A stretch of DNA of 64,000 nt from Escherichia coli (GTDB lineage: Bacteria; Pseudomonadota; Gammaproteobacteria; Enterobacterales; Enterobacteriaceae). How positions within the stretch are numbered: position 1 is the stretch's first letter; each line of letters begins with the position of its first letter. Shown one piece after another: positions 4,243-60,668 of the stretch. Under the pieces are notes generated by a model. That model was not told the DNA's origin, did not search any database, and worked only from the letters and a program-made list of their open reading frames with translations. The stretch lies in NCBI RefSeq assembly GCF_041248615.1, contig NZ_CP158426.1; one strand, 5' to 3'. The position numbers and the translations under genes are program-made.

Positions 4243-4563
4243 TTTTAGTCCATTTTGATAAAATACATAAACATAGATGGTAAGTAGAGCCAAAGGCCAA
4301 CTATGGAAAACTCAATCGGTAGTGTACATTGTAAGGTTATTATTGGTAAATATTATAGGAATACCCATAATCTAACAAAATTCAGATTATCCGTTGCAAA
4401 TTAGTCTGCCATTCGCTAATTGACGAAAGATAGCACAAGAAACGTTCGCTTCTGGCACAAAGCGGACGATCACTTATAAAAATGACCGCCCACCTTACGC
4501 CTTATTTCACTCGTTGCCCAAACTAGCCCCCATTAGAATGAATCCTCCTAGGGGCAACGTTTC

Positions 4564-7564: not shown

Positions 7565-8418
7565 GCACGCACTCCGTACACGGCAGAACTATCCACGCCA
7601 CGCGAAGGATCAAATCCCACCCAGCAGCGCGCCCCAGAAACAGCGATGATTTCTGTTGCAGATTTACTCTCACCAGTTGCTACGCCGATGCTGCGTTTTG
7701 CCTTGATGTAGTGGTGAGTAAAATTGCGATACAGCGAACGGATCAGGGATGTGTCACTGTTAGAAACAATGACCGGATGTCCTTCTGATGACCGATGTTC
7801 AAGAACGGATGCCAGGTGATACTGGTCATCTTCAGTGAAGCCGTCAGTGTGATAACCGGAAAACGTGCCGTCATACGGCGGATCGCAATACACCACATCC
7901 CCCGCCTTCAACATCGCCAGCGTTTCATCAAAGCTGGCGCAGATAAACGTTGCCCGCTGGGCTTTTTCTGCAAATGCGCGAATTTCTTTTTCAGGGAAAT
8001 ACGGATTTTTATAATTACCGTAGGGAATGTTGAAATGCCCGCTCTTGTTATAGCGACATAAACCACGGTAACCGTGACGATTGAGATACAGGAAATATAC
8101 CGCTTTCATGAAATCAGTAATTTCAGTTGAGTAATTAAACTCCTGCCTTATGTTGTAATAAGCCACCTCCCTGTTTGCTTCCTCAAATAAAGCTCTGGCG
8201 CGAGATATAAACAATTCACAATCAGCGGCAACCTTTTTATAGAGGTTGATTAAATCAGGATTAATATCCGCAACCAGATAGCTGGGGTAATCCGTCTCCA
8301 TCATCACTGCACAGGAACCCGCGAAAGGTTCAACCAGTCGCGGGCCAGCAGGAAGGTGTTTTTTCAGTTCTGGCATAATGGCGGTTTTATTTCCCGCCCA
8401 TTTCAGGATGGTGCTCAT
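7561..8418 (-). CDS. Dam-family N6-adenine DNA methyltransferase (phage-encoded)
   Basis: N-terminal [11 protein letters not shown]...EPFAGS (SAM-binding) and catalytic DPPY (VYCDPPY); start at the internal Met overlaps the upstream stop (ATGA). Confidence 0.85.
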
Positions 8419-8642
8419 ACAGCACCTCCGTTGTAATGTTTGCCTTTCAGCTCTGCGATTTCCTGACAGGTAATGCAAAGCTGCACTCCAAGAATGGCGC
8501 GGCGTCGTGCTGGCGGAATTGGCGCTTCACATTCAATACAAAGCACGCGGGACACGCCCGGCGTTTTGGCACGGGCAGCACGGATATGACGCTGGCGTTC
8601 TTCTTCAACGCGCTGCTGTACGAGATCCATTGCATCAGCCAT
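8415..8642 (-). CDS. TraR/DksA-family C4 zinc-finger protein (P2 orf82-like)
   Basis: 75 aa with CIECEAPIPP...CITCQ four-Cys motif; typical early-operon position. Confidence 0.7.
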   Translation of the reverse strand: MADAMDLVQQRVEEERQRHIRAARAKTPGVSRVLCIECEAPIPPARRRAILGVQLCITCQEIAELKGKHYNGGAV

Positions 8643-10219: not shown

Positions 10220-10344
10220 GATGCAACATTCCTCGTTTAATGATGATTAATCAGGACGAATACGGATCGTTTGTATTTTGTGAACACCATAAACATACGA
10301 TCGCACAATGAAATCGTCAAGACAAAAGTTCACTTGGAGTGACC
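10220..10344. promoter_or_regulatory. Immunity switch region between apl and cI (expected pR/pL promoters and CI operators)
   Basis: 125-bp divergent intergenic region containing repeated ACGATCG-type elements; assignment by analogy to 186. Confidence 0.45.
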
Positions 10345-10914
10345 ATGAATTTGGAGAAAGGCGGACGAGGCGCTATAGAGCGCATGGTAGAAGCTTATGG
10401 ATTCAAGACTCGACAGGCGTTGTGCGATCATTTAGGAATCTCTAAAAGTACACTCGCCACACGCTACATGCGTGACTCATTCCCCGCAGAATGGGTAATC
10501 CAGTGCGCCCTTGAAACGGGCACCTCGCTTAATTGGCTCACAACCGGGCATGGTTCAAAGCAAACTTCAGGTAATACAAATACTATGGAAGTTGCTAAAT
10601 ATGTATTATCTGATGGGGCCTTGTGTGAAGACGGTTTTTATATTTTCGATAGGGGATTTCTACCGTCGGCATTCAAGAGTCTTTTTGTAATCACAGATAA
10701 TAATTCTGAATGTATTTGTGATAAGGAATTTGATGATATACGTGATGGTAAATGGGTAATAAGTATTGATGGTGAAATAACGATCCGTGACATTACTCGT
10801 TTACCCGGCGGAAGAATCTTCGTCGAGGGTGGAAACAGAGCGTTCGAATGCAAGATAGAAGACATTGAAATAATTGGTAAAATTATAAGTTTAACAGTCA
10901 AGTATGTTAAATAG
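10345..10914 (+). CDS. CI immunity repressor (phage 186 CI family)
   Basis: ERMVEAYGF...CALETGTSLNWLTTGHG...GKWVISIDGEITIRDITRLPGGRIFVEGGNRAFECKIEDIEIIGKII parallels the recalled 186 CI sequence; GGAG RBS before ATG at 10345 (track ORF starts at GTG 10339). Confidence 0.85.
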   Translation: MNLEKGGRGAIERMVEAYGFKTRQALCDHLGISKSTLATRYMRDSFPAEWVIQCALETGTSLNWLTTGHGSKQTSGNTNTMEVAKYVLSDGALCEDGFYIFDRGFLPSAFKSLFVITDNNSECICDKEFDDIRDGKWVISIDGEITIRDITRLPGGRIFVEGGNRAFECKIEDIEIIGKIISLTVKYVK

Positions 10915-11121: not shown

Positions 11122-11309
11122 CTTTTGCTTTTATATCTGCGCCTAAAATAAAAATGAGCCGCAGGTTAACCGCAAAAGTTACATGCTCACATAGCAAAAA
11201 GAATAGCCAACTTAATTATGGCTTCAGTGAGATGTATGGTCGTAGGATTTCATACATTGACACTGGTTATACATACAGTGAAAATGCTCTCTACTGGAGG
11301 GCATTTTTT

Positions 11310-12362
11310 ATGGCAGTACGAAAACTCACCACAGGGAAATGGCTTTGCGAATGTTACCCCGCCGGACGTAATGGGCGTCGTGTGCGTAAACAATTCGCCA
11401 CCAAAGGCGAAGCACTGGCCTTCGAGCGATACACCATGGGGGAAATAGAAGCAAAGCCCTGGCTGGGCGAATCAGTGGATCGTCGGACACTGAAAGATAT
11501 GGTTGAGCTATGGTTCAAATTACATGGCAAATCTCTTACTGCCGGACAGCATGTCTACAACAAGCTGCTGTTGATGGTTGACGCCTTGGGAAATCCCCTT
11601 GCAACTGATCTCACCTCAAAAATGTTTGCTCACTATCGCGATAAACGCCTTACTGGTGAAATCTACTTCAGTGAAAAATGGAAGAAAGGAGCAAGCCCAG
11701 TTACTGTTAACCTGGAGCAAAGCCATCTAAGCAGCGTTTTCAGAGAACTTTCCCGCCTGGGTGAATGGACACTTCCAAACCCATTAGAGAAGATGCGCAA
11801 ATTCACTATCGCAGAAAAGGAAATGGCATGGCTTACACATGAGCAGATTATCGAATTACTGTCTGACTGCAAACGTCAGAACCCAATTCTGGCACTGGTG
11901 GTAAAAATATGTCTAAGTACAGGTGCACGTTGGCGAGAAGCAATCAATCTTGCTCGCTCACAGGTCACCAAGTACCGAATCACCTTTGTGAGAACGAAGG
12001 GTAAGAAAAACAGAAGCATCCCTATCAGTAAAGAGCTTTATGAAGAGATAATGGCGCTCGATGGGTTCAATTTCTTCACAGACTGCTATTTTCAATTTTT
12101 ATCCGTGATGGAAAAAACGTCTATCGTTCTCCCTCGCGGTCAACTGACACACGTTCTGCGCCATACGTTTGCGGCGCACTTCATGATGTCGGGTGGAAAC
12201 ATCTTGGCCTTACAAAAAATTCTCGGACATCACGATATAAAAATGACTATGCGTTATGCGCATCTGGCACCGGATCATTTGGAAACGGCGCTCCGTTTCA
12301 ATCCACTGGCAACGTTACCAAATGGCGACAAAGTGGCGGCAGCGGTTGGCATTACCCCGTAA
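11310..12362 (+). CDS. int: Phage tyrosine integrase
   Basis: Catalytic residues in TGARWREA, HVLRHTFAAH and MRYAHL; GGAGG RBS before ATG at 11310 (track ORF starts upstream at 11154); last prophage gene, about 100 bp from host rcdA. Confidence 0.9.
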   Translation: MAVRKLTTGKWLCECYPAGRNGRRVRKQFATKGEALAFERYTMGEIEAKPWLGESVDRRTLKDMVELWFKLHGKSLTAGQHVYNKLLLMVDALGNPLATDLTSKMFAHYRDKRLTGEIYFSEKWKKGASPVTVNLEQSHLSSVFRELSRLGEWTLPNPLEKMRKFTIAEKEMAWLTHEQIIELLSDCKRQNPILALVVKICLSTGARWREAINLARSQVTKYRITFVRTKGKKNRSIPISKELYEEIMALDGFNFFTDCYFQFLSVMEKTSIVLPRGQLTHVLRHTFAAHFMMSGGNILALQKILGHHDIKMTMRYAHLAPDHLETALRFNPLATLPNGDKVAAAVGITP

Positions 12363-15520: not shown

Positions 15521-16753
15521 TTACCCTTCGTGAGAATTTCCCATCTGTTTATCTTTTAAAAAGATAACCATCAGCGACAGCCACAAAATTCCGTTGACAA
15601 GGTTGAAGAGATTAAACAGTCCGTTGCCCCCGTTCAGCCAGGCATGTTTGCTGATTTCAATACCGACGGTAAAGATCAGCATTTGCAGCATTCCCATCGC
15701 CGCAGAAACCGTACCTTTACTCATATCGCTGGCAAACAGAGTTAATCGCACCAGTCCCGCATTCGCCAGACCAATACCGAAAGCATAAATACTTAACCCG
15801 GCGGTCATCCATAAATACGCGTGCGATGAGATAACCGTTGCCGCAGCAGCGACAAACAGACCAATCATAATCGGCCAGCCGCCCATAATAATCAGCGAAC
15901 GTACGGTGCGGCGCGAGGTCAGACGCGCTAGCAGCAAGTTACCCGCAATTAACGCCCCGAAAATAGGCACTTGCAGCAAGCCATATTCATAGCTGCTCAA
16001 CTGCTCACCGGTAATGATGATAATCGGCGACTGGGCGATCCACGCCAGCAACGGCAGGCTAACGAATCCCAGCGCCAGCGCCCCCGCCACAAAGCGACCG
16101 TTCTTCAGCACCAGCTTATAGTCACGACCGAGTTCTTTCAGCGACAGTTTCTCGCCTATACGCGTGGCGGTTTCAGGCATGGCTCGTTGCAGACCGAAAA
16201 AGGAGATCGCTGCCAATGCGGCAAACAAGACAAACATCCCTTCCCAGGGCAGCACATGGATCCACGCCGCGCCCACCAGCGGGCCAAGTAGTGGAGCAAT
16301 CAGCGCCACGTTCGCCATCAGCGCGGTGATCTTGATACAAACCGCCTCTTCGAAGGATTCCTGAATTGCGGCGTATCCCACAGCGCCAATGAAACAGAGG
16401 CTTATGCCCTGCAAGAAGCGCAACAGGGTGAATTGTTCAATGTTTTGCGCCAGTAATATTGCCAGACAGGTGATGATAAACCACACCACCCCCGCCAGCA
16501 TCACCGGACGGCGACCAATACGATCCGACAGCGGCCCCAGGAGCCATTGTAAAAACATCCCGCCCGCCAGATACGCAGTCATCGAAGTAGGAACCCAATC
16601 AATGCCCGCCTGATATTGTTCCACCACGGCCAACATACCGGGTTGAATCATATCGTTGCCGATATAGGTTGAAAATTCGTAAAGCACCAGACAGAGAGGG
16701 AAAAGTAACGCCTGACGTCCAAGCCTGGCACCGGAAACTAATTTATTTTGCAT
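15521..16753 (-). CDS. mdfA: MFS multidrug efflux transporter MdfA (Cmr)
   Basis: 410 aa after trimming to MQNKL; synteny. Confidence 0.9.
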
Positions 16754-17037
16754 GCAATTTCTTCGCCAATAATAATCGCGCAAAGTTTAATAAAAGCGCA
16801 GCTAACGAGAAAGCGAATTTTGTAGCTGAAACCACGGTTAAGCACATTCTTACATTATTGCGAGTATAGCTACGCTTTCTTTAAGTTTTATTTAACCTAT
16901 GCCCGTTACAATCACCCACCGTAAACAGGCCGCTTGAGGGAAATAAGACGATGCCGCTTTACCCAGTTTAACCTGCACTTTATTCTCAACGACTTGCCTG
17001 TATTGGCTCCCTTTTAATCACTTTGCGTCGGGAAGTT

Positions 17038-23716: not shown

Positions 23717-23889
23717 TTAATCTTAAGGCAGATCTAACAAGGATATTGTTCTTCGATCTGCCTCTGCTACCCTTCCCGATGTCCTACCCTTACGCACAAA
23801 ATCCCCTGACGCATAAATCGAGAAAAATGAATCGTACTCGAGGCAACTCTCACTTTTTCACACCAAATTAAAGTTTTGATCGCAATTAC

Positions 23890-23926
23890 TTGAAATAAGC
23901 GTAATGGTTACTATAGTAAACATTAC
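23890..23926 (+). promoter_or_regulatory. Sigma70-like promoter (TTGAAA-16-TATAGT) overlapped by a 26-bp near-perfect palindrome: likely autoregulatory operator of the toxin-antitoxin operon
   Basis: Palindrome GTAATGGTTACTA/TAGTAAACATTAC at 23901-23926 (one mismatch) spans the -10 element; RBS AAGGA and ATG follow at 23942. Confidence 0.5.
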
Positions 23927-23941
23927 CACAAGGATGGATGT

Positions 23942-24328
23942 ATGGGTGTGTATAAGGCAAGACGATTCAGCCAAAGCACGAAAAAACTTGGTATTCACGA
24001 TAAAGTTCTCATGGCTGCCGCTGAAGAAGTGATGCAGGGCATATGGGAGGCTGATTTAGGTAGCGGTGTCATCAAAAAACGTTTACCCCTCCAACAAGGA
24101 AAGAGTGGTGGAGCCAGAACAATTATCTTTTTTAAATCAGCAAATCATGTGTTTTTTTATGATGGTTGGTCCAAGAGTGGTCTAAGCAGTAAAGGAACCA
24201 AAGAAATCGAAGATGATGAACTGGCGGCCTACAAAAAAATGGCAAATGCATTTCTGGCCTTTAGCAATAAGCAAATAGAGGATTTGATCGAAACTGGCTT
24301 TTTGATTGAGGTGAAAAATGAGCGATAA
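23942..24328 (+). CDS. HigB2-like (Gp49/RelE-superfamily) toxin of a type II toxin-antitoxin pair
   Basis: GSGVIKKRLPLQQGKSGGARTIIFF resembles the recalled HigB-2 core (GTGGLRKIR...GKRGGSRIIYYF); toxin-first order with an 11-nt overlap into an HTH gene; absent from this position in K-12 as recalled. Confidence 0.55.
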   Translation: MGVYKARRFSQSTKKLGIHDKVLMAAAEEVMQGIWEADLGSGVIKKRLPLQQGKSGGARTIIFFKSANHVFFYDGWSKSGLSSKGTKEIEDDELAAYKKMANAFLAFSNKQIEDLIETGFLIEVKNER

Positions 24329-24647
24329 ATTACAAATGATGCTGGAAGATGCAAAGGAACTGAATGCACTGGGCCTGATGTCTGATAGTGAAGTTGATGC
24401 CATTGCCGTCATGGTCAAAGCTCGTGAAGTCAGCGCCCGTATAGCCAAAGTCAAATCAATGACGGGTGAAGAGATCAAAGCCATCCGCACCCGATACGGC
24501 ATGTCACAATCCGTGCTGGCACATACAATGGGAATGTCAAAAGAAAGTGTCTCGAAATGGGAACGTAATGAAATAAAACCGAGCGGCCCGGCATTACGTA
24601 TTTTGAATACATTGGCAATAAAAGGGCCGGAAGTTTTTGCAAAGTAA
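24318..24647 (+). CDS. HigA-like XRE-family HTH antitoxin
   Basis: C-terminal helix-turn-helix (GMSQSVLAHTMGMSKESVSKWE); overlaps the toxin gene. Confidence 0.6.
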   Translation: MSDKLQMMLEDAKELNALGLMSDSEVDAIAVMVKAREVSARIAKVKSMTGEEIKAIRTRYGMSQSVLAHTMGMSKESVSKWERNEIKPSGPALRILNTLAIKGPEVFAK

Positions 24648-24677
24648 AATGTTTGCAAATGATTTACCACATTCATT

Positions 24678-24701
24678 AGTACCCCTTGATTAAGGGGTAC
24701 T
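24678..24701. terminator. Bidirectional hairpin between the antitoxin gene and dgcI (AGTACCCCTT-GATT-AAGGGGTACT)
   Basis: Perfect 10-bp stem read directly between two convergent genes. Confidence 0.5.
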
Positions 24702-24716
24702 AACACTATTCTAATT

Positions 24717-26045
24717 CTACTGCCAGCTAATCTGCGCCCTGCCGTTTTTCTTACTCTTATACAGCCGCTCATCCGCCAGCATTTTCAAGCGTTCGACGGT
24801 AGTACATTCATTTGAATGCGCTACACCGATACTGGTGCTTAAATTAATGCTTCCCACCTGGAAATGAACGATTTCTTTTAGAATCGATAGCAACTCTTCC
24901 AGCGTTCCACCCGTATAAATCACCGCAAATTCGTCACCGCCGAAGCGGTAGACTTTACCTTTATCTACCGGGATCTGTGATTTAAGGATTTTCACCACTT
25001 TCATCAACACTTCATCGCCCAGCAAATGACCGAAGGTGTCGTTGATGTTTTTGAATTTATCGACGTCAAACAGGCACAAATAACCGCCTTTTTCCGGTAG
25101 CGCTTTTAAATCTTCGTCAAAGGATTTTCTGCCCATCGCTTTGGTCAGGTCGTCCAGGAACGCCGAGTTATACAGACTGTAGAGTTTTTTGACATCGGCA
25201 GCCGAAAAGAAAAGCCCGCCATCCAGTACGCGTTCAAAATGGTTATTAATAATGGCTTCTTTCTCCACAATACCACGATTAATCACTCTGCGTACCAGAT
25301 AGAGGCAACTGACACCCGATATCACTGCCACCAATGCGGCAAAGAAAATAATCAATGTACAGACCCGCAAATAAACATCTTTTTTATACGCAAATACGTA
25401 CAATCCGGTCGGCAAATAGGCGAAGTGCTCCATCGCTTCCGAAACGGTGAAGATGGCGTTTTTAGCATTATATTCATCACCGGTCACCGGTTTACCGTTC
25501 TTAAACAGAGAGAACATCAGGTTCTCGCTATCCATCGCCAGCGATTTTGACAGTAAAGAAAAACGCTCCAGACCAAGCAAAAATATCAGACTACGATTAT
25601 GAGTTACCGGATAGAGGTAATAGACGAAGGTTTTACCGTCAAAAGAGATAAACCCTGTATTTTTGACATGTCGATACTTCACAATCTGCATAATATCTGC
25701 ACAATAATTTTTCTCGAACTCCTTTACCTGAATACATTCGTCACTGGAAATCAGATAAGGACCGACATCGTACAAATAAGAGGGTGAAAGCGAGTCGGCG
25801 TAAGCTGTGCGTAAGCCAACCAACAGCTGTTCCTCCGTGGGGTTTAGCGTGTTGATAAGATCAATTGCCACGCTACGCCGATATTCAGCAATATTTGCCA
25901 CCGCAAAAGCAGTATCAATAACGGACTGTTTCAGGCCATACACCCGTTCCTTTACCATTTGAGTGTAGATCCCGCAGGCAACTGCTGAAATCATGATAAA
26001 AATCAGCAGACTGACTGTAAGTACGAACTTATTGATTCTGGACAT
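24717..26045 (-). CDS. dgcI: Diguanylate cyclase DgcI (YliF), GGDEF domain
   Basis: 442 aa, N-terminal membrane/periplasmic region and RFGGDEF motif; synteny. Confidence 0.9.
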
Positions 26046-28578: not shown

Positions 28579-29490
28579 CTATCCTTTAATTTTCGGATCC
28601 AGCGCATCGCGTAAACCATCACCCAACAAATTGAACGCCAGTACAGTCAGAAAAATAGCCAGGGCCGGAAAAATAGCGACATGCGGCGCGATAACCATAT
28701 CCGCTCGTGCCTCATTGAGCATTGCTCCCCACTCTGGTGTCGGCGGCTGCGCACCGAGGCCGAGAAATGACAGGCTGGCGGCAGAGATAATCGAGGTACC
28801 GATGCGCATGGTGAAAAACACCACGATAGACGAGACGGTCCCAGGCAAGATATGACGCAATAAAATGGTCATATCGCTGGCACCAATACTGCGTGCTGAC
28901 TCAATAAAGGTTTGCTGTTTCAACACCAGCGTGTTGCCGCGCACCAGTCGGGCAAACGCGGGGATGGAAAAAATGGCGACTGCAATAATCACGTTAGCAA
29001 TGCCGCTTCCCAACACCGCAACAACAGCGATCGCCAGTAAAATACCCGGGAAGGCAAACAGCACATCGCAAATGCGCATGATCAGCCGATCCCACCAGCC
29101 TTCATAATATCCAGCCAACAAGCCCAGCAACGTCCCGATCGCCGCACCGATAAACACGGCAAACACGCCCGCCGCCAGCGAGATTTGTGCACCAACCAGG
29201 ACACGGCTGAAAATGTCACGCCCCAGTGAATCAACGCCAAACCAGTGCTGCAAAGAAGGTCCGTTATTCAGATTGTCATAATCGAAATAATTTTCGGCGT
29301 CATAGGGAGCGATCCAGCGTGCAAAAATGGCCACTACAATCAATAAAATAACGAATAATGCGGCGGTCATCGCCATATGCTGACGGCGAAATCGTCGCCA
29401 GAATTCATGCCACGGTGTACGTACCTGGTCAGGTTTGACCAGTGGCATGGCGTTTAACGCCGCCTGACGTCGCCAGTTAAATAGTCGCAT
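28579..29490 (-). CDS. gsiD: Glutathione ABC transporter permease GsiD
   Basis: 303 aa permease; synteny. Confidence 0.9.
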
Positions 29491-42329: not shown

Positions 42330-43595
42330 ATGGCTTCTACTTTTACCAGCGACACATTGCCTGCCGATCACAAAGCAGCTATCCGTCAGATGAAGCACGC
42401 GCTGCGGGCACAGCTTGGCGACGTCCAGCAGATCTTTAATCAGCTAAGCGATGACATTGCTACGCGAGTGGCTGAAATCAACGCACTCAAAGCACAGGGC
42501 GATGCCGTCTGGCCGGTGCTGTCTTATGCCGATATCAAAGCAGGTCATGTTACTGCAGAGCAGCGCGAACAGATTAAACGTCGCGGTTGTGCGGTGATAA
42601 AAGGCCATTTCCCCCGCGAACAAGCGCTAGGCTGGGATCAGTCGATGCTGGACTATCTGGACCGCAACCGCTTTGACGAGGTCTACAAAGGCCCCGGCGA
42701 TAATTTCTTCGGGACGCTCAGCGCTTCACGTCCCGAGATTTACCCCATCTACTGGTCGCAGGCGCAAATGCAGGCCCGCCAGAGTGAAGAAATGGCGAAT
42801 GTGCAGTCGTTTCTCAATCGTCTGTGGACATTTGAAAGTGATGGAAAGCAATGGTTTAACCCGGATGTGAGCGTCATCTACCCTGACCGTATCCGCCGCC
42901 GTCCGCCCGGAACGACCTCCAAAGGTCTTGGAGCGCATACCGACTCCGGGGCGCTGGAACGCTGGCTGCTTCCAGCGTATCAGCACGTTTTCGCCAACGT
43001 CTTTAATGGCAATCTGGCGAAATACGATCCCTGGCATGCGGCACATCGTACGGAAGTTGAAGAGTACACGGTGGACAACACCACCAAATGTTCCGTGTTT
43101 CGGACATTCCAGGGCTGGACAGCGCTCTCTGATATGCTGCCTGGTCAGGGGCTGCTGCACGTCGTGCCCATTCCTGAAGCCATGGCGTACGTACTGTTAC
43201 GTCCGCTGCTTGATGATGTGCCGGAGGATGAACTGTGCGGCGTAGCGCCCGGAAGAGTATTGCCGGTATCAGAGCAATGGCATCCACTGTTAATTGAGGC
43301 GTTAACCAGCATTCCAAAACTCGAAGCCGGAGACTCCGTCTGGTGGCACTGCGACGTCATCCATTCCGTTGCCCCCGTTGAAAATCAACAGGGCTGGGGC
43401 AACGTGATGTACATTCCTGCGGCACCGATGTGCGAGAAAAATCTTGCCTACGCGCACAAGGTGAAGGCCGCACTGGAAAAAGGCGCATCGCCGGGCGACT
43501 TCCCGCGCGAGGACTATGAAACAAACTGGGAAGGACGCTTTACGCTTGCCGACCTCAACATTCACGGTAAGCGAGCGTTGGGAATCGACAGCTGA
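42330..43595 (+). CDS. ybiU: DUF1479-family protein YbiU
   Basis: 421 aa from MASTFTSD; synteny. Confidence 0.8.
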   Translation: MASTFTSDTLPADHKAAIRQMKHALRAQLGDVQQIFNQLSDDIATRVAEINALKAQGDAVWPVLSYADIKAGHVTAEQREQIKRRGCAVIKGHFPREQALGWDQSMLDYLDRNRFDEVYKGPGDNFFGTLSASRPEIYPIYWSQAQMQARQSEEMANVQSFLNRLWTFESDGKQWFNPDVSVIYPDRIRRRPPGTTSKGLGAHTDSGALERWLLPAYQHVFANVFNGNLAKYDPWHAAHRTEVEEYTVDNTTKCSVFRTFQGWTALSDMLPGQGLLHVVPIPEAMAYVLLRPLLDDVPEDELCGVAPGRVLPVSEQWHPLLIEALTSIPKLEAGDSVWWHCDVIHSVAPVENQQGWGNVMYIPAAPMCEKNLAYAHKVKAALEKGASPGDFPREDYETNWEGRFTLADLNIHGKRALGIDS

Positions 43596-44665
43596 GTGTC
43601 GTACAGCCCTTCCCGTTCCACGGCGGTGTTCCCTTTTCCTGGGCGAACCCGCCGCACTGACTCCCGCATCGCCAATCGTCCGTGCAGCAGCAGCGAGCCC
43701 ACCGGAGCATCCGGGCGAATCAGCCGCTGTTGCAACATTTGCACCGCTTCATTGCCTAGCTCATCGCGTGGCACATGCACAGCCGTCAGGGGAACATCCT
43801 CGATTGCCGCAAGGTTAAAGCCGTCGATACTCATCACCGAGACATCCTGTGGTACGCGCAGACCACGACGATGTAGCGCATTTACCGTTCCCGCCGCCAT
43901 AAAATCCCCGCCGACCAGAAACGCCGTCGGCAACGTCTTGCCATTGGCGGCATCCAGCCACGCTCCGACCTTTTCTTCCGCTTCTTTAGCGCTAAAACTG
44001 CTGATATTCAGCAAATGACGGTCATGGTGAAAGGCCAGATTATGCTGACGCCATGATTCTTTAATCCCTGCAAACCGCTGCTCCATAGTGTAGCGGCGCA
44101 GGCACATCACATTCATCACCTCCCGGTGACCCATTTCAAACAGATAGCGGGCGGCGAACGCGCCAATTAACCGATGGTCCGGCGCAATCGCCGGGAGGCG
44201 CATTCGTTCATCACGGCAGTTGATCAGCACACAAGGCTTAGCGAGATCGGCGGCCAGATCATGGATGTGCGGATCGTCAATCCCCAGCAGGATCGCCGCC
44301 TGCGTATCTGCTTCATTCATCCGCGAGAGAAATAGCGCGGGATCGCTGTCAAACTCCTCCAGCGCGCAGTAACGCAGCCGCACTTCATGCGGCGATAACG
44401 CTTTGCTGATGCTCTGGATCACACGGTAATAAAAGATATCAGATCGTTGGTCAAAAGCGCGTTGCGGCGCGAAAATAATCAGGTTGTTCAGCAACATACG
44501 ACCTGCTGCCATGCCATCCATCACGCCCAACTCACGCGCGCAGGCCAGCACCTGTTCGCGAGCGCGTGCACTGGTATTCGCTTTGCCAGCCAGCACCCGC
44601 GAAACCGTACTCGGCGATAGCCCGGTACGTGCGGCGATATCGGCGATTTTCAGCTTCTTGTCCAT
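43562..44665 (-). CDS. LacI-family transcriptional regulator (accessory island)
   Basis: N-terminal HTH (KIADIAARTGLSPSTVSRVLAG) and periplasmic-binding-like effector domain; start at MDKKLKIADIA; 3' end overlaps ybiU by 34 bp. Confidence 0.75.
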   Translation of the reverse strand: MDKKLKIADIAARTGLSPSTVSRVLAGKANTSARAREQVLACARELGVMDGMAAGRMLLNNLIIFAPQRAFDQRSDIFYYRVIQSISKALSPHEVRLRYCALEEFDSDPALFLSRMNEADTQAAILLGIDDPHIHDLAADLAKPCVLINCRDERMRLPAIAPDHRLIGAFAARYLFEMGHREVMNVMCLRRYTMEQRFAGIKESWRQHNLAFHHDRHLLNISSFSAKEAEEKVGAWLDAANGKTLPTAFLVGGDFMAAGTVNALHRRGLRVPQDVSVMSIDGFNLAAIEDVPLTAVHVPRDELGNEAVQMLQQRLIRPDAPVGSLLLHGRLAMRESVRRVRPGKGNTAVEREGLYDTQLSIPNARLP

Positions 44666-44959
44666 TTTGTGATCTGCCTCTAATTCGGAAATGACAGAAT
44701 TTTCATGAGCAAAAAAGCCCATTCTGTCTGGCATTAAATCCATTTCAGTAATGTATATCAGTCACTCATGGAAAAACGTGCACAAAACCCGCTTTCTTTC
44801 GCTTTTAGGGTCTCTTACTGTGAATTGGTAGAACAACTTCCATACAAAAATAATGGGAAAACGAACAATAAAGACTTTATTTATCAAAAAGTTAAAAGTG
44901 GTGTGACAACTCCATTCTGACGTTGCCGCACAAACCCTATACCATTCTGTGGAGTGCAT

Positions 44960-46261
44960 ATGAGTCAGGGTATCAATAACGATATGACTGCCAGTAAACC
45001 GCGCCATATCGTCAAAAATCTGCGTTGGTGGATACTGGTCCTTTTTTTGCTCGGTGTTACTGTCAACTACATCACGCGTAACTCGCTGGGTATTCTCGCC
45101 CCCGAACTGAAAAGCAACCTGGGGATTACCACCGAACAATATTCCTGGATTGTAGGTGCTTTCCAGCTCGCCTATACCCTATTCCAACCGTTGTGTGGAT
45201 GGCTGATTGACGTCATTGGCCTCAAACTGGGCTTTATGATCTGCGCGGGACTGTGGGCGCTGGCCTGTCTGATGCATGCGGGGGCGGGAAACTGGGTACA
45301 TCTGGCGCTGTTGCGCTTCTTTATGGGCGGTGCGGAAGCCGCGGCACCCCCAGCAAACGCCAAAACCATCGGTGAATGGTTTCCAAAATCAGAACGCCCG
45401 ATCGCCGCAGGCTGGGCAGGCGTCGGTTTTTCCATCGGTGCCATGCTGGCCCCACCGATTATCTATTTTGCCCACGCTTCATTCGGCTGGCAGGGTGCAT
45501 TTATGTTCACTGGCATCCTGGCGATGCTGTGGGTGGTGCTGTGGTGGGCGTTCTATCACAACCCGGATAAGCATCCTAACCTCAGCAAAGCCGAGCTGGA
45601 CTTTATCCGCCAGGATAACGAAGCGCCCCCTGTCAAGTTACCCTTTCTGACCGCACTGAAAACCGTAGGTAAAAATAAACGCTTTTACGGTATCGCTATC
45701 CCGGCCTTTATGGCAGAACCGGCGTGGGCGGTGATGAGTTTCTGGGTTCCGCTATACCTGTCCAAAACCTATGGCATGGACCTGAAGCAGATCGCATTAT
45801 TCGCCTGGTTGCCGTTCCTCGCCGCTGATCTTGGCAGTATTGCCAGCGGCTATCTGACCAAACTTTACACCCGCCTGTTTGGGCTGAGTCGTGTGAACTC
45901 CGTTGTCGCATCATCGGTCAGTGGCGCATTCCTGATGGTTTCGCTGGCGGTGATGGCCTTTACCAATAACCCGTATATCGCCATCGTCCTTATTTCCATC
46001 GGCGGCTTCGGTCACCAGATCATCTCCTGCATGCTGAGCGCACTGGTGGTGGAATCCTTCGACAAAGGTCAGATGGCCACTGTTAACGGCATGCGCGGTT
46101 CTGCCGCGTGGATCGCAAGTTTCCTGTTCTCCCTGATTATCGGGGTTACCGCTGACAAAATCGGCTTTAACCCCCTGTTTATCGCCATGGGCTTCTTTGA
46201 CCTGATTGGTGCTTTCTTCCTGGTCACCTTTATTGCTGAACGTCGCGCAAAACGCGCCTGA
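44960..46261 (+). CDS. MFS transporter of the anion:cation symporter type (ExuT/hexuronate-transporter-like)
   Basis: Twelve hydrophobic segments; blocks resembling the recalled ExuT sequence (FYGIAIPAFMAEPAW, IALFAWLPFLAADLG, TNNPYIAIVLISIGGFGHQ); GGAG RBS before ATG at 44960. Confidence 0.7.
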   Translation: MSQGINNDMTASKPRHIVKNLRWWILVLFLLGVTVNYITRNSLGILAPELKSNLGITTEQYSWIVGAFQLAYTLFQPLCGWLIDVIGLKLGFMICAGLWALACLMHAGAGNWVHLALLRFFMGGAEAAAPPANAKTIGEWFPKSERPIAAGWAGVGFSIGAMLAPPIIYFAHASFGWQGAFMFTGILAMLWVVLWWAFYHNPDKHPNLSKAELDFIRQDNEAPPVKLPFLTALKTVGKNKRFYGIAIPAFMAEPAWAVMSFWVPLYLSKTYGMDLKQIALFAWLPFLAADLGSIASGYLTKLYTRLFGLSRVNSVVASSVSGAFLMVSLAVMAFTNNPYIAIVLISIGGFGHQIISCMLSALVVESFDKGQMATVNGMRGSAAWIASFLFSLIIGVTADKIGFNPLFIAMGFFDLIGAFFLVTFIAERRAKRA

Positions 46262-46275
46262 GAGTGGATGTAAAC

Positions 46276-48639
46276 ATGAAAACGCTGAAAAACTGGACCC
46301 TGCACAAACAGTCTGCCCACCACGTTGAACTGCTGGTCGATGGCCAGCATATCCTGTGCCTGTACGTGCTGGAAGAAAATCTGTTCCGCGTGCTGTTAAA
46401 ACGCAAAGGCGAGCTGGCGCTGGATCGCACCTGGAGTATTGCTCCGGCGCAGGATGTGCCATGGGAAGGGCGCAGCCGCGAAGATCTCAGCGGCTTTAGC
46501 CTGCCCGCGTGGACATTGATCCAGCACGACGACACCGTGGTTATCGCCACCGAGTCACTGCGTGCAACCGTTCACCAGCCGCTGTGGCTGGAGTGGCACT
46601 ATCGTAACAACGAAGGCGAATGGCTGCCGTTGGTGAATGACCGCCCGACCAGCGCTTATCTGCTGAATGCCCACGGCGATGGCGTGGCACACTATCAGAG
46701 CCGTCGTAAAGATGAACGCTTTTATGGCCTCGGAGATAAAGCCGGCGACCTGCAACGCAACGGTAAACGTTACGAGATGCGTAACCTCGACGCGATGGGC
46801 TACAACGCCGTTAGTACTGACCCGCTGTACAAACACATTCCATTCACCATCACCCGCCGCGATGACATTAGCTTCGGCCTGTTTTATGACAACCTCAGCA
46901 GCTGCTGGCTGGATCTGGGCAACGAGATCGACAACTACCACACCGCCTATCGCCGCTGGCAGGCGGAAGCGGGTGATATCGACTACTACCTGTTTACCGG
47001 CGAACGCGTACTTGATATCACCAAATCCTTCGTACGCCTGACCGGAAAAACCCTGTTCGGACCGAAATGGAGCCTGGGCTACAGCGGTTCAACTATGCAC
47101 TACACCGATGCGCCGGACGCACAAAATCAGTTGATGAACTTTATCCGCCTGTGTGAAGAACATGCAATTCCCTGCGATTCGTTCCAGCTCTCTTCCGGTT
47201 ATACCTCAATTAACGGCAAACGCTATGTGTTCAACTGGAACTACGAAAAAGTGCCGCAGCCGAAAGTGATGAGCCAGGCATTTCACAATGCTGGTTTGCA
47301 CCTGGCCGCCAATATCAAGCCGTGCCTGTTGCAGGATCACCCACGCTATAACGAAGTGGCAGAAAGAGGACTGTTCATCCGTGATTCAGAAACAGATGAA
47401 CCAGAACGTTCCAGCTTCTGGGATGACGAAGGTTCTAACCTCGACTTTACTAATCCGCAGACCATCCAGTGGTGGCAGGAAGGCGTGACCACACAGCTTC
47501 TGGAGATGGGTATCGACTCCACCTGGAACGACAACAACGAATTCGAAGTATGGGACGGTGAAGCACGCTGTCACGGCTTTGGTCAGACGATCGCGATCAA
47601 ACATATTCGCCCAGTGATGCCACTGCTGATGATGCGAGCCTCGATGGAAGCCCAGCAGCGTTTCGCTCCGGAAAAACGTCCGTACTTGATCTCCCGCTCC
47701 GGCTGCGCGGGAATGCAGCGCTACGTGCAGACCTGGAGTGGCGATAACCGCACTAGCTGGGACACTCTACGCTACAACACCCGCATGGGTCTGGGGATGA
47801 GCCTCTCCGGGCTGTATAACCTCGGTCACGACGTCGGCGGTTTCTCCGGTGATAAGCCGGACCCGGAACTGTTTGTACGCTGGGTACAAAACGGCGTGAT
47901 GCATCCGCGCTTTACGATTCACTCATGGAACGATGACCATACCGTAAACGAACCGTGGATGTATCCGGGCGTCACTCCGGCGATCCGCAGCGCTATTGAG
48001 TTGCGCTATCGCCTGCTGCCCTACTTTTATACCCTGATGTGGCAGGCATACGCCGATGATGAACCAATGCTACGTCCGACTTTCCTTGACCACGAGCACG
48101 ACGTTCAGACTTTTGAAGAGTGTGATGACTTCCTGCTTGGTCGCGATATTTTGGTTGCCAGCGTCGTAGAGCAAGGCGAGCGCCAGCGCCGTGTATGGCT
48201 GCCAGATAACGAAACTGGCTGGTACGATTTCTACAACGGCGAATGGTTCAGTGGCGGTCAGTGGATCACCCTCGACGCACCGCTGGAGAAACTGCCGCTG
48301 ATGGTGCGTGCCGGGGCTGGTCTACCGCTCAGCAAACGCATCACCTATGTGAGCGCAGAACAAGACGATACCCGCGAACTGAAACTGTTCCCGCTGAAAG
48401 GTGTGGGCACAACGTCCGGCCTGCTGTTTGAAGACGATGGCGAAAGCTGGGGCTACCAAACTGGTAATGCGCTTTGGGTGGAATGGGAAATGGTTTGCGA
48501 TGGGGCGACCATCAACCTGAAAGTCAACGCGCGCGGGGATTATCGACCTGCATGGAGTGCACTGAAAGTGTCATTACCAGTGGAAGAAAAACGCACGCTG
48601 CTGGTCAATGGTGTTGAAGGGAGTGAATGGATGCGTTAA
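46276..48639 (+). CDS. Glycoside hydrolase family 31 enzyme (alpha-glucosidase/alpha-xylosidase-like), substrate unknown
   Basis: About 790 aa with GH31-type nucleophile region (IDSTWNDNNEFEV) and acid/base region (LGHDVGGF); begins 15 nt after the transporter stop, so probably cotranscribed. Confidence 0.7.
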   Translation: MKTLKNWTLHKQSAHHVELLVDGQHILCLYVLEENLFRVLLKRKGELALDRTWSIAPAQDVPWEGRSREDLSGFSLPAWTLIQHDDTVVIATESLRATVHQPLWLEWHYRNNEGEWLPLVNDRPTSAYLLNAHGDGVAHYQSRRKDERFYGLGDKAGDLQRNGKRYEMRNLDAMGYNAVSTDPLYKHIPFTITRRDDISFGLFYDNLSSCWLDLGNEIDNYHTAYRRWQAEAGDIDYYLFTGERVLDITKSFVRLTGKTLFGPKWSLGYSGSTMHYTDAPDAQNQLMNFIRLCEEHAIPCDSFQLSSGYTSINGKRYVFNWNYEKVPQPKVMSQAFHNAGLHLAANIKPCLLQDHPRYNEVAERGLFIRDSETDEPERSSFWDDEGSNLDFTNPQTIQWWQEGVTTQLLEMGIDSTWNDNNEFEVWDGEARCHGFGQTIAIKHIRPVMPLLMMRASMEAQQRFAPEKRPYLISRSGCAGMQRYVQTWSGDNRTSWDTLRYNTRMGLGMSLSGLYNLGHDVGGFSGDKPDPELFVRWVQNGVMHPRFTIHSWNDDHTVNEPWMYPGVTPAIRSAIELRYRLLPYFYTLMWQAYADDEPMLRPTFLDHEHDVQTFEECDDFLLGRDILVASVVEQGERQRRVWLPDNETGWYDFYNGEWFSGGQWITLDAPLEKLPLMVRAGAGLPLSKRITYVSAEQDDTRELKLFPLKGVGTTSGLLFEDDGESWGYQTGNALWVEWEMVCDGATINLKVNARGDYRPAWSALKVSLPVEEKRTLLVNGVEGSEWMR

Positions 48640-48818
48640 ATCATTACCGGGGCCGGGAGGCGACTGCGCCTTACCCGGTCCAGCCATCGAATCCTTTACC
48701 TCAGTATTTCACGCTGCAGGAAGGCAGCAAACCTGTAAACCCCGGGAGCTTAAATAAGTAAGTGACCGGGGTGAACAGGTGAAGCCAATGCATCTGCCGC
48801 ATGAAAGACGGCGGGAAA

Positions 48819-50414
48819 TTAACCGTCGATCCCTTTACTACGCAGGTAATCTTCGTAATTACCGCTAAAGTCGATCACGCGTTCCGGGGTGATTTCCAGA
48901 ATGCGGGTCGCCAGGGAGCTTACGAACTCACGGTCGTGTGAAACAAAGATCAGCGTGCCCTGATACAGTTCCAGCGCCATGTTCAGCGACTCAATAGATT
49001 CCATATCCAGGTGGTTGGTCGGTTCGTCCATGATCAGAATGTTCGGCTTCTGCATCATTAACTTACCAAACAGCATCCGCCCTTTTTCTCCACCGGAAAG
49101 CACTTTCGCTGGCTTTTTGATGTCGTCCTGGCTGAACAGCAAACGACCGAGAATGCTGCGTACCGCCTGCTCATCATCGCCTTCCTGCTTCCACTGACTC
49201 ATCCATTCGAACACGGTAAGATCATTTTCAAACTCATATTCGTGGTCCTGGGCGTAGTAACCAATGCGTGCGTTTTCAGACCATTTTACGGTGCCGCTGT
49301 CCGGTTGCAGATCGCCCACCAGCGTTTTCAGCAGCGTTGATTTACCGACGCCGTTGGTACCCAGTACCGCCAGTTTTTCACCCACTTCCAGCAGCAGGTT
49401 GAGATTTTTAAACAGTGGACCGTTATCAAACCCTTTGGTCAGACCTTCCACTTCCAGCGCGTTACGGAACAGTTTCTTATCCTGCTCAAAACGGATGAAC
49501 GGGTTCTGACGGCTGGAGGCTTTCACCTCTTCCAGTTTGATTTTATCAATCTGGCGCGCGCGCGAAGTTGCCTGGCGAGATTTCGAGGCGTTGGCGCTAA
49601 AGCGGCTAACGAAAGATTGCAGCTCAGCAATCTGCGCCTTCTTCTTGGCGTTATCAGCCAGCAGACGTTCACGCGCCTGGGTCGCCGCCGTCATGTACTC
49701 ATCGTAGTTGCCCGGATAAACGCGCAGCTCGCCGTAATCCAGATCCGCCATGTGGGTACAAACCATGTTAAGGAAGTGACGGTCGTGCGAGATGATGATC
49801 ATGGTGCTGTCACGCTCGTTCAGCACCTGTTCCAGCCAGCGAATGGTGTCGATGTCGAGGTTGTTGGTCGGTTCGTCGAGCAGGAGAATGTCCGGATCAG
49901 CAAACAGCGCCTGCGCCAGCAGCACACGCAGCTTCCAGCCAGGAGCAACTTCACTCATCGGGCCGTAGTGCTGTTCCACTGGAATTCCCACGCCAAGCAA
50001 CAGTTCACCGGCGCGAGCTTCCGCAGAGTAACCGTCCATTTCGCCGTATTTCACTTCCAGATCGGCCACTTTATAGCCGTCTTCTTCACTCATTTCCGGC
50101 AAAGCATAGATGCGGTCACGCTCCTGCTTCACTTCCCACAACTCTTTATGCCCCATGATCACCGTATCCAGCACAGTGAACTCTTCAAAGGCAAACTGAT
50201 CCTGACGCAGCTTACCAATGCGCTCGTTGGGATCGAGGGAAACGTTACCCAACGTCGGCTCTAAGTCGCCGCCGAGGATCTTCATAAAGGTGGATTTACC
50301 ACTACCGTTCGCGCCAATCAGGCCGTAACGGTTGCCGCCGCCAAATTTGACGGAAATGTTTTCAAACAACGGCTTACTGCCGAACTGCATGGTGACGTTA
50401 CTGGAAACTAACAC
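48819..50414 (-). CDS. ybiT: ABC-F family ATPase YbiT
   Basis: Two ABC cassettes (GANGSGKS and GTNGVGKS); about 530 aa; synteny. Confidence 0.9.
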
Positions 50415-57335: not shown

Positions 57336-57968
<633 letters not shown>

Positions 57969-58008
57969 ATCCATCGCTGATGGTGCAGAACTTTAGTACA
58001 CGATAAAA

Positions 58009-58040
58009 GCGGCTTCCTGACAGGAGGCCGTTTTGTTTTG
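58009..58040 (+). terminator. Rho-independent terminator of dps
   Basis: GC-rich hairpin (GCGGCTTCCTG/CAGGAGGCCG) followed by TTTTGTTTTG. Confidence 0.55.
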
Positions 58041-58194
58041 TAGCCCGCCTCAACGCACTTATTTAGTGCATCCATCTGCTATTCCCAGCTGGTTAAGTAA
58101 ATTTTTTGTATCCACATCATCACACAATCGTTACATAAAGATTGTTTTTTCATCAGGTTTTACGCTAAATAATCACTGTGTTGAGTGCACAATT

Positions 58195-58320
58195 TTAGCG
58201 CACCAGTTTGGTGCCCCAGAATGGTGCATCTTCAAGGTGTTGCCCTATAAATCGTGCATCACGTTTTTACCGCATCTCGATAAATCAATGAGTTGCAAAA
58301 CTGGCACGATTTTTTCATAT
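58195..58320 (+). promoter_or_regulatory. glnH control region: NtrC-type sites (GCACCA-N-TGGTGC) and sigma54 promoter TGGCAC-N5-TTTCA
   Basis: GCACCAGTTTGGTGC and TGGTGCA elements at about 58200-58230 and TGGCACGATTTTTTCA at 58302-58317. Confidence 0.55.
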
Positions 58321-58356
58321 ATGTGAATGTCACGCAGGGGATCGTCCCGTGGATAG

Positions 58357-59118
<762 letters not shown>

Positions 59119-59150
59119 TAACGCTACGCCTGTAAAGCGCACTGGCAGTT

Positions 59151-59205
59151 CCCTCTCCCCGCCGGGGAGAGGATTAGGGTGAGGGGCGCAAACCCGCTCC
59201 GAGGC
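59151..59205. repeat. GC-rich palindromic intergenic element between glnH and glnP (CCTCTCCCC-GCC-GGGGAGAGG)
   Basis: Perfect 9-bp inverted repeat followed by a second GC-rich segment; possible intra-operon attenuator or mRNA-stabilising hairpin. Confidence 0.4.
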
Positions 59206-59256
59206 CATTAATTACCCTGAATTTGATTATTTACACCACGGTAACAGGAACAACAT

Positions 59257-59916
59257 ATGCAGTTTGACTGGAGTGCCATCTGGCCTGCCATTCCGCTTCT
59301 GATTGAAGGTGCCAAAATGACCCTGTGGATTTCGGTCCTCGGTTTGGCTGGCGGTCTGGTGATCGGATTGCTGGCAGGTTTTGCACGCACCTTCGGTGGT
59401 TGGATAGCCAACCACGTCGCGCTGGTCTTTATTGAAGTGATCCGCGGCACACCTATCGTCGTCCAGGTGATGTTTATCTATTTCGCCCTGCCGATGGCGT
59501 TTAACGACTTACGCATCGACCCGTTTACTGCGGCGGTGGTCACCATCATGATCAACTCCGGCGCGTACATTGCGGAAATCACGCGTGGTGCGGTGCTGTC
59601 TATTCACAAAGGTTTTCGTGAAGCAGGACTGGCGCTCGGTCTTTCACGTTGGGAAACCATTCGCTACGTCATTTTACCGCTGGCACTGCGTCGTATGCTG
59701 CCGCCGCTGGGTAACCAGTGGATCATCAGCATTAAAGACACCTCGCTGTTTATTGTTATCGGCGTGGCGGAACTGACCCGTCAGGGGCAAGAAATTATTG
59801 CCGGTAACTTCCGCGCCCTTGAGATCTGGAGCGCCGTGGCGGTGTTCTATCTGATTATTACCCTGGTGCTGAGCTTTATTCTGCGTCGTCTGGAAAGAAG
59901 GATGAAAATCCTGTGA
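59257..59916 (+). CDS. glnP: Glutamine ABC transporter permease GlnP
   Basis: 219 aa; synteny. Confidence 0.95.
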
Positions 59917-60635
59917 TTGAATTTAAAAACGTCTCCAAGCATTTTGGTCCAACCCAGGTGCTACACAATATCGATTTGAACATTGCTCAGGGCGAAGTCG
60001 TGGTGATTATCGGGCCGTCCGGTTCCGGTAAATCGACCCTGCTGCGCTGCATCAACAAACTGGAAGAAATCACTTCCGGCGATCTAATCGTCGATGGCCT
60101 GAAGGTTAACGATCCGAAAGTTGACGAGCGCCTGATTCGCCAGGAAGCAGGTATGGTGTTCCAGCAGTTTTACCTCTTCCCGCATCTGACGGCGCTGGAA
60201 AACGTCATGTTTGGTCCGCTACGCGTGCGTGGCGCGAACAAAGAAGAGGCGGAAAAACTGGCGCGTGAGCTGCTGGCGAAAGTCGGCCTGGCAGAACGCG
60301 CTCACCACTACCCTTCCGAGCTTTCTGGTGGTCAACAGCAGCGTGTGGCGATCGCACGCGCGCTGGCGGTAAAACCGAAAATGATGCTGTTCGATGAACC
60401 GACTTCCGCTCTTGACCCGGAACTGCGCCATGAAGTGCTGAAGGTTATGCAGGATCTGGCTGAAGAAGGGATGACGATGGTGATCGTGACACACGAAATC
60501 GGTTTTGCCGAGAAAGTAGCTTCGCGCCTGATCTTTATCGACAAAGGCCGGATTGCGGAAGATGGCGATCCGCAGGTGTTGATCAAGAACCCACCGAGCC
60601 AGCGCTTGCAGGAATTTTTGCAGCACGTCTCTTAA
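59913..60635 (+). CDS. glnQ: Glutamine ABC transporter ATP-binding protein GlnQ
   Basis: 240 aa, Walker [10 protein letters not shown], signature LSGGQQQR. Confidence 0.95.
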
Positions 60636-60642
60636 CTTCTCA

Positions 60643-60668
60643 GCCTCCCTTTCCCCCGAAAGGGAGGC
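60643..60668 (+). terminator. Stable hairpin after glnQ (GCCTCCCTTT-CCCCCG-AAAGGGAGGC)
   Basis: 10-bp perfect stem directly after the stop; no T-run, so termination efficiency is uncertain. Confidence 0.4.

Follow-up and report, generated by a model that had tools for sequence, protein, structure and literature searches.

The 403 bp between dps and glnH in Escherichia coli (57969–58371 of the 64,000-nucleotide stretch of contig NZ_CP158426.1 analysed here, referred to throughout as the window) raise the question of how the glutamine transport genes that follow are controlled, and of whether the control region known from strain K-12 accounts for all of the elements that can be recognized in this spacer. 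The open reading frames around the promoter region are ompX, rhtA, dps, glnH, glnP, glnQ and ybiO of an E. coli chromosome, and the operon downstream of the promoter consists of glnH, glnP and glnQ (58372–60635, plus strand). The GlnH product is identical to K-12 GlnH (WP_000843866.1), and the Dps protein is also that of K-12, as judged from the RefSeq annotation of the best-matching genomes. An initial annotation had read the region 58195–58320 as a sigma-54 promoter with NtrC-type palindromes that places glnHPQ under nitrogen control, which matches the published glnHp2 promoter and the NtrC and sigma-54 binding data on this spacer. The region corresponds to the already-known glnHp2 control region of E. 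coli, which this strain retains intact, and it almost certainly serves the glutamine ABC-transporter operon glnHPQ as a sigma-54 promoter that depends on NtrC and IHF. Three elements were absent from that annotation, namely an IHF site at 58283–58295, the sigma-70 promoter glnHp1, and an NtrC-like dyad at 58054–58070 (Table 1). A search of 57900–59300 against Rfam gave no match at or above the gathering score, and the weak sub-threshold matches were on the dps terminator only.

The comparisons across the family use a scan of species-representative genomes that gave at least 80 loci from about 30 genera of Enterobacteriaceae, which together with the window make up the 81 sequences listed. Conservation is expressed as the frequency of the majority base over these 81 sequences.

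Table 1. Features of the dps-glnH spacer, the glnHPQ operon and the prophage end of the window. Coordinates are window positions, conservation is the majority-base frequency over the 81 sequences listed, and a dot marks features to which no strand is assigned.
Feature	Coordinates	Strand	Details
dps intrinsic terminator	58006–58039	+	13-bp stem followed by a T-run; upstream edge of the glnH control region
Third NtrC-like palindrome, CGCACTTATTTAGTGCA	58054–58070	.	3 mismatches; centre at −267 of glnHp2 and ~−116 of glnHp1
Sigma-70 promoter glnHp1	58106–58178	+	CRP site from PMC1865078; start near 58178
Degenerate CRP site, ttgTATCCacatcaTCACAcaa	58106–58127	+	Centred at −61.5 of glnHp1 (PMC1865078)
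glnHp1 −35 box, TTGTTT	58142–58147	+	Putative; read by eye from the published CRP site
glnHp1 −10 box, TAAATA	58165–58170	+	Putative; read by eye from the published CRP site
glnHp1 block			Conservation 0.89–0.90
NtrC site centred at −122, CGCACCAGTTTGGTGCC	58199–58215	.	2 mismatches to TGCACC-N5-GGTGCA
NtrC site centred at −109, TGCCCCAGAATGGTGCA	58212–58228	.	1 mismatch to TGCACC-N5-GGTGCA
Isolated GTGCA half-site	58254–58258	.	~−73 of glnHp2; conservation 0.95
IHF core, AATCAATGAGTTG	58283–58295	+	WATCAA-N4-TTR; −46 to −34, between enhancer and promoter
Sigma-54 promoter glnHp2	58302–58317	+	Exact sequence, PWM, published ChIP-seq site OS06
−24 box, TGGCAC	58302–58307	+	Conservation 0.95
−12 box, TTTCA		+	Conservation 0.998
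Rest of spacer			Conservation 0.63
glnHp2 start and 43-nt leader with Shine-Dalgarno	58329–58371	+	Start from PMC1865078 primers
glnH	58372–59118	+	Open reading frame; RefSeq annotation of identical proteins
glnP	59257–59916	+	Open reading frame; RefSeq annotation of identical proteins
glnQ	59913–60635	+	Open reading frame; RefSeq annotation of identical proteins
Prophage portal fragment	55–780
Prophage replication protein A	5150–7564
Prophage D12 adenine methyltransferase	7561–8478
Prophage CI repressor	10339–10914
Prophage integrase	11154–12362

The sigma-54 promoter glnHp2

The motif TGGCACGATTTTTTCA lies on the plus strand at exactly 58302–58317, as had been annotated. The GG of its −24 box (58303–58304) falls at −26/−25 of the published start, and the −12 box follows at the correct spacing of 10 nt from GG to GC, with TC at 58315–58316 (−14/−13) standing in place of the GC. 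The proposed fit to the −24/−12 pattern thus holds for the −24 box, the spacing and the matrix score, but not for the −12 box, which is without the consensus G.

Plain consensus counts are uninformative for either type of element: TGGCAC-N5-TTGCW with one mismatch has 3 matches in the window against 3.6 expected, and TGCACC-N5-GGTGCA with up to three mismatches has 31 against 31.6, with no enrichment in either case. A position weight matrix and cluster tests were therefore used instead. The matrix was built from 41 intergenic-sense sigma-54 ChIP-seq sites (Table 1 of PMC4591121) with glnH left out, and by this leave-one-out measure the glnH 17-mer scores 16.25 bits, the highest value in the 64-kb window when both strands are scored, and at about the median of the training sites (range 9.1–21.2, median 15.9). 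The next-ranking matches, at 28877, 38733, 35946 and 39143, are missing from the main text of PMC4591121 and are taken as chance. Elsewhere in the window, TTGGCGAAGAAATTGCA at 16753–16769 on the minus strand is identical to the ChIP-seq site OS07 upstream of ybjG, for which rcdA is given as the downstream gene, and is a second genuine sigma-54 binding site.

Published sigma-54 binding data also bear on this promoter. The sigma-54 ChIP-seq site OS06, CTGGCACGATTTTTTCA, has a PSSM score of 10.79 and is listed by EcoCyc as 'confirmed' (PMC4591121), and it is identical to the window sequence at 58301–58317. The Salmonella orthologue, TGGCATGATTTTTTCATT, whose −12 box is the same TTTCA, is bound in ChIP-chip, and Salmonella glnHPQ expression is 7.1-fold rpoN-dependent by microarray (PMC3844500). 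RpoN also gives a gSELEX peak at 847362 (PMC8743547), corresponding to about 58237 in the window.

Unusually, glnH stands alone among the 42 ChIP-bound intergenic-sense sigma-54 sites of E. coli in having a −12 box without the G, which is present in the other 41, and the weakness of glnHp2 would come from this T in place of the G of the −12 GC. If the G is restored, the matrix score rises to 22.7 bits, higher than that of any training site. Nonetheless T58315 is kept in all 81 of the Enterobacteriaceae sequences listed, 80 of which have TTTCA and one (L078) TTCCA; the only variation in the −24 box is C or T at its final base. This pattern suggests that the weakness of the −12 box may be selected for. 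The missing G matches the published picture of glnHp2 as a weak, IHF-dependent promoter, and the −12 GC is a consensus feature rather than an absolute requirement, the identical TTTCA-bearing sequence being bound in vivo and a confirmed promoter.

The transcription start at 58329 is derived from the primers described as amplifying '−289 to +63 of glnHp2' (PMC1865078), both of which map to the window, and the motif-centre+19 rule of PMC4591121 gives 58328, in agreement to within 1 nt; the latter study gives a distance of 44 bp between OS06 and glnH. The TGGCAC motif is 68–71 bp before the ATG in nearly all of the listed genomes (74 bp in L079), and the leader has a conservation of 0.94 across genera in the 81 listed sequences, its variation being too low for covariation to show. 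The leader contains a small GGGG-AUCG-YCCC hairpin that includes a GATC (Dam) site, as well as two GGA motifs, one of them within the Shine-Dalgarno sequence. A role of these in mRNA stability or as a CsrA-type site would be a guess, and the hairpin (−10.4 kcal/mol, z −0.45) folds no better than shuffled sequences.

The proximal NtrC dyads

Two NtrC dyads are located 74–103 bp before the TGGCAC box, where the initial annotation had described GCACCA/TGGTGC-type elements, and GCACCAGTTTGGTGC at 58200–58214 is an exact GCACCA-N3-TGGTGC dyad. The two sites share 4 bp, and their positions of −122 and −109 relative to the start at 58329 are within the ~100–150 bp upstream that is expected of NtrC enhancers. 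The dyad centres at −122 and −109, the GG at −26/−25 and the TC at −14/−13 are reportedly at the positions given in the 1991 footprinting paper.

Although the number of NtrC-like matches in the window is no greater than expected, their clustering is exceptional, with four NtrC-like 17-mers within 60 bp in none of 300 Markov simulations of the window, and a pair with no more than two mismatches exactly 13 bp apart in two of 300. The sites are also well maintained in the family. A 17-mer with at most three mismatches occupies the aligned −122 position in 70 of the 81 sequences listed and the −109 site is present in all 81, and the half-sites have conservation values of 0.80–0.94 compared with 0.60–0.69 for the spacers within the sites (0.89 against 0.69 for the left half-site of −122 and its spacer; 0.94 against 0.60 for the right half-site of −109 and its spacer). 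Applied to the glnAp2 region, the same pattern finds exactly the published sites at −140 and −108 (PMC1865078), and no others.

Direct binding of NtrC at glnHPQ is stated in PMC4066584, with the 1991 footprinting paper cited, and NtrC control of glnHp2 is also stated in PMC1865078. The NtrC ChIP-seq peak at 847261–847341 of NC_000913.2 (PMC4066584) maps to about 58258–58338 of the window, and its centre is ~80 bp downstream of the dyads, which is within ChIP resolution and is not a base-pair match. The NtrC gSELEX peak is at 847362 (PMC8743547), as for RpoN, and maps to the same window position of about 58237.

Two larger arrangements were considered and rejected. The first is an array of four sites at 13-bp steps, whose outer 17-mers (58186–58202 and 58225–58241, three mismatches each) are unconserved (0.43–0.48) and found in few genomes. 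The second is a full NtrC site at 58242–58258, whose centre is 30 bp further downstream than that of the −109 dyad; its left half is unconserved and the 17-mer averages 5.3 mismatches. The well-conserved right end of this stretch, the isolated GTGCA half-site, is possibly a low-affinity NtrC contact.

The glnA control region provides a close comparison. In both systems a CRP-activated sigma-70 promoter (glnAp1 in the case of glnA) lies upstream of a sigma-54 promoter with NtrC dyads more than 100 bp upstream, and the dyad consensus is common to the two. However, glnAp2 has its strong sites at −140 and −108, 32 bp from each other, and requires no IHF, whereas at glnH the two sites are offset by 13 bp and overlap, with an IHF site located between the pair and the promoter. 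The −12 box of glnAp2, TTCGCT, has the canonical G that glnHp2 is without.

The IHF site

The IHF core in the window is an exact match to the consensus and has a conservation of 0.85 over the 81 listed sequences. A core with at most one mismatch is present in 73 of the 81, and in all 73 it is positioned 19 bp before TGGCA. An IHF footprint and a positive ChIP-qPCR at glnH have been described, the amplicon corresponding to window 58220–58325, and the glnH signal fell below threshold in the genome-wide GeF-seq of the same study (PMC8407004). The IHF bend is required for looping at glnHp2, in the same way that Klebsiella nifH, Pseudomonas Pu and E. coli pspA have an IHF site between enhancer and promoter and need the bend for looping (PMC2709558), although the activators of these three are NifA, XylR and PspF, and that of glnHp2 is NtrC.

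Conservation and spacing across the Enterobacteriaceae

Among the 80 other genomes listed, the half-sites, the −24 and −12 boxes, the IHF core and the spacings are conserved, whereas the spacers and flanks vary. dps is upstream in 79 of the 80 listed loci, and the median identity of the upstream regions to that of the window is 62%. The 13-bp separation of the two proximal dyads is nearly fixed in the 81 listed sequences, and the −109 site starts 90 bp before TGGCA in 74 of them. One genome, L054, has a shortening of 11 bp, or one helical turn, between enhancer and promoter.

Comparison with K-12 and other E. coli strains

The dps-glnH spacer differs from that of K-12 by 12 substitutions in 403 bp (97.0% identity), compared with 98.2% identity for the surrounding collinear block. 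Six of the 12 are within 58195–58320, at 58207, 58235, 58239, 58269, 58281 and 58289, and none is at a specified motif position: the change at 58207 hits the middle base of the spacer within the −122 dyad, that at 58289 hits an unspecified (N) position in the IHF core, and the other four are between elements. The K-12 and window promoters thus share the locus, the −24/−12 17-mer, the NtrC half-sites, the consensus positions of the IHF core, the leader and an identical GlnH, and differ by these spacer substitutions. The earlier description of the control region as conserved is accurate for the elements but not for the region as a whole. A comparison of seven E. coli haplotypes gives 19 polymorphic positions, none of them on a specified motif base. 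The sparing of motif bases is only suggestive, as for the six changes in the region it has a chance of about 1 in 10.

The spacer haplotype is a rare one, with nine of 5,421 complete E. coli genomes at 99% identity or more; isolate 362 (NZ_OW967178.1, Madrid) matches at 100%. T at 58083 and A at 58235 differ from all six of the other haplotypes sampled. In E. coli IAL7255 (NZ_CM130730.1, H30) an IS element, annotated as an integrase core domain protein, is inserted in the spacer at the equivalent of ~58131. The insertion separates the CRP-like site from the −35 box of glnHp1, and the far-upstream dyad is thereby cut off from the remaining control region.

Among the other differences from K-12, collinearity is absent over the segment 1–12437 of the window, up to rybB. 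This segment represents one end of a P2-like prophage (Table 1), and its cargo includes a KAP-family NTPase (2350–4293) and a RES-domain protein (833–1987), two genes that could be a defence hotspot. A 5.2-kb islet at 43589–48825, between ybiT and ybiU and missing in K-12, contains genes for a LacI-family regulator, an MFS transporter and a GH31 alpha-glucosidase-like enzyme. There is ~1 kb of extra DNA at 23722–24717 between dgcI and rimO, and at 60636–60643 the glnQ-ybiO spacer is without ~150 bp that K-12 has.

A far-upstream NtrC-like dyad

When the 81 sequences listed are aligned, NtrC-like 17-mers recur in exactly three places, namely the two known sites and 58054–58070. Of the 81, 80 have the far dyad, with a mean of 1.64 mismatches that makes it the best of the three and a consensus of TGCACttttATgGTGCA, and its half-sites have conservation values of 0.97 and 0.93 compared with 0.65 for its spacer. 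The E. coli copy, with three mismatches, is the weakest in the family.

The far dyad is ~145–158 bp upstream of the known dyads, and its distance to the −109 site is 157–160 bp in 77 of the 80 listed genomes. Two of the exceptions, L043 and L074, are longer by 11 and 12 bp, and the apparent third, L054, is an artefact of the search window; in this genome, which has the shortened enhancer-to-promoter interval, the far-to-proximal distance is kept at 160 bp. The distance between the far dyad and the dps stop codon ranges from 3 to 172 bp (77–85 bp in Escherichia, 59 in Klebsiella grimontii, 90 in Raoultella terrigena and 172 in Salmonella), and where it changes the far dyad still starts ~317–319 bp before the glnH ATG. 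Because the dps distance is variable and the −109 register is kept, the far dyad tracks glnH and not dps. The possibility that it is conserved simply by abutting the dps terminator was rejected, the terminator stems varying freely whereas TGCAC/GTGCA is kept.

Between the far and proximal dyads is glnHp1, which is placed by its published CRP site; a simple sigma-70 scan gave no promoter in the dps-glnH spacer. The proximal dyads are at about +22 to +51 of glnHp1. The most economical reading, which we infer from this arrangement, is that 58054–58070 would be a third NtrC site that aids oligomer assembly and that brackets and represses glnHp1. A literature search gave no account of a site at 58054–58070, the original 1986–1992 papers and RegulonDB being outside its reach, and the novelty of the far dyad is uncertain. 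Together with the family-wide invariance of the −12 T, it is the sole element described here that is possibly new.

How these elements may work together

The most probable scenario for glnHp2 is that RNA polymerase with sigma-54 would sit as a closed complex on TGGCAC-N5-TTTCA (58302–58317), and that upon nitrogen limitation phosphorylated NtrC would occupy the overlapping −122 and −109 dyads (58199–58228) and oligomerize. IHF at 58283–58295 would bend the DNA such that the NtrC ATPase contacts the polymerase and the open complex forms, with transcription starting at ~58329. The missing −12 G would make the promoter intrinsically weak and so reliant on bending by IHF and proper helical phasing, although this role for the weak −12 box is inferred. 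The binding of sigma-54, NtrC and IHF is taken from the literature on the identical or near-identical K-12 sequence, and is predicted for this strain by its sequence; the elements themselves, their matrix strength, their conservation and their fixed geometry are direct observations of this study.

The far dyad allows a bolder proposal, which we put forward tentatively and regard as improbable on balance. It would be an undescribed functional third NtrC site, 158 bp (~15 helical turns) upstream of −109, and an NtrC loop of ~150 bp around glnHp1 would help to assemble the glnHp2-activating hexamer at low concentrations of phosphorylated NtrC and at the same time shut off glnHp1. The invariant weak −12 box would then be part of the same design, firing only from an assembled, IHF-bent enhancer complex.

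An alternative, doubtful to a similar degree, is that the dyads are mainly an operator or roadblock for glnHp1, and that with the far dyad NtrC loops out and silences glnHp1 when glnHp2 is on, much in the way that glnAp1 is repressed by NtrC; such a function would come on top of the enhancer role and not replace it. The placement of glnHp1 by a CRP site centred at −61.5 is consistent with this, as are the dyads on both of its sides (145 and 158 bp, centre to centre), the near-universal far dyad with its 157–160 bp register and outliers of +11 and +12 bp, and the published likening of the glnH promoter architecture to glnAp1/p2 (PMC3870243). However, the literature search gave no experimental report of NtrC repressing glnHp1 or binding 58054–58070, the far dyad is weakest in E. 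coli itself, and the conserved spacing could simply reflect the conserved glnHp1 block that lies between the dyads.

It is very unlikely that a protein other than NtrC binds the dyads, be it a different enhancer-binding protein or a repressor that recognizes a similar TGCAC-N7-GTGCA sequence. The protein cannot be named from sequence alone, and published binding data cover neither the far dyad nor the isolated GTGCA half-site, but the pattern recovers precisely the two sites of glnAp2 at which NtrC has been footprinted, with no further match in that region, both the ChIP-seq and the gSELEX peaks of NtrC are on the dps-glnH spacer, and direct NtrC binding is stated with the 1991 footprinting as its source (PMC4066584). 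The last alternative holds that both the sigma-54-like motif and the dyads match their consensus by chance and that glnHPQ is transcribed here from sigma-70 promoters only. It could appeal to the mismatch-tolerant consensus counts, which equal the shuffled expectation, and to the absence from the −12 box of the G that 41 of the 42 bound sites have, but it is already effectively refuted by the top matrix score in the window, the rarity of the clusters in simulation (0 and 2 of 300), the invariance of position and sequence in the 80 other genomes listed, and the published ChIP and gSELEX data on the identical sequence.

Implications for glnHPQ control

The NtrC- and IHF-dependent glnHp2 promoter is thus the reading that we retain for 58195–58320, and the confirmation that a textbook control region is intact in one more strain adds nothing new in itself. 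The by-products may be of modest use to specialists in sigma-54 and Ntr regulation. These are a family-wide footprint of glnHp2, a probable weakening base that appears to be under strong purifying selection, spacing that appears to change by whole helical turns only, and a conserved third NtrC-like dyad that flanks a sigma-70 promoter. If this third dyad is functional, then the accepted two-site architecture of glnHp2 would be revised, and the switch between glnHp1 and glnHp2 would have a concrete mechanism.
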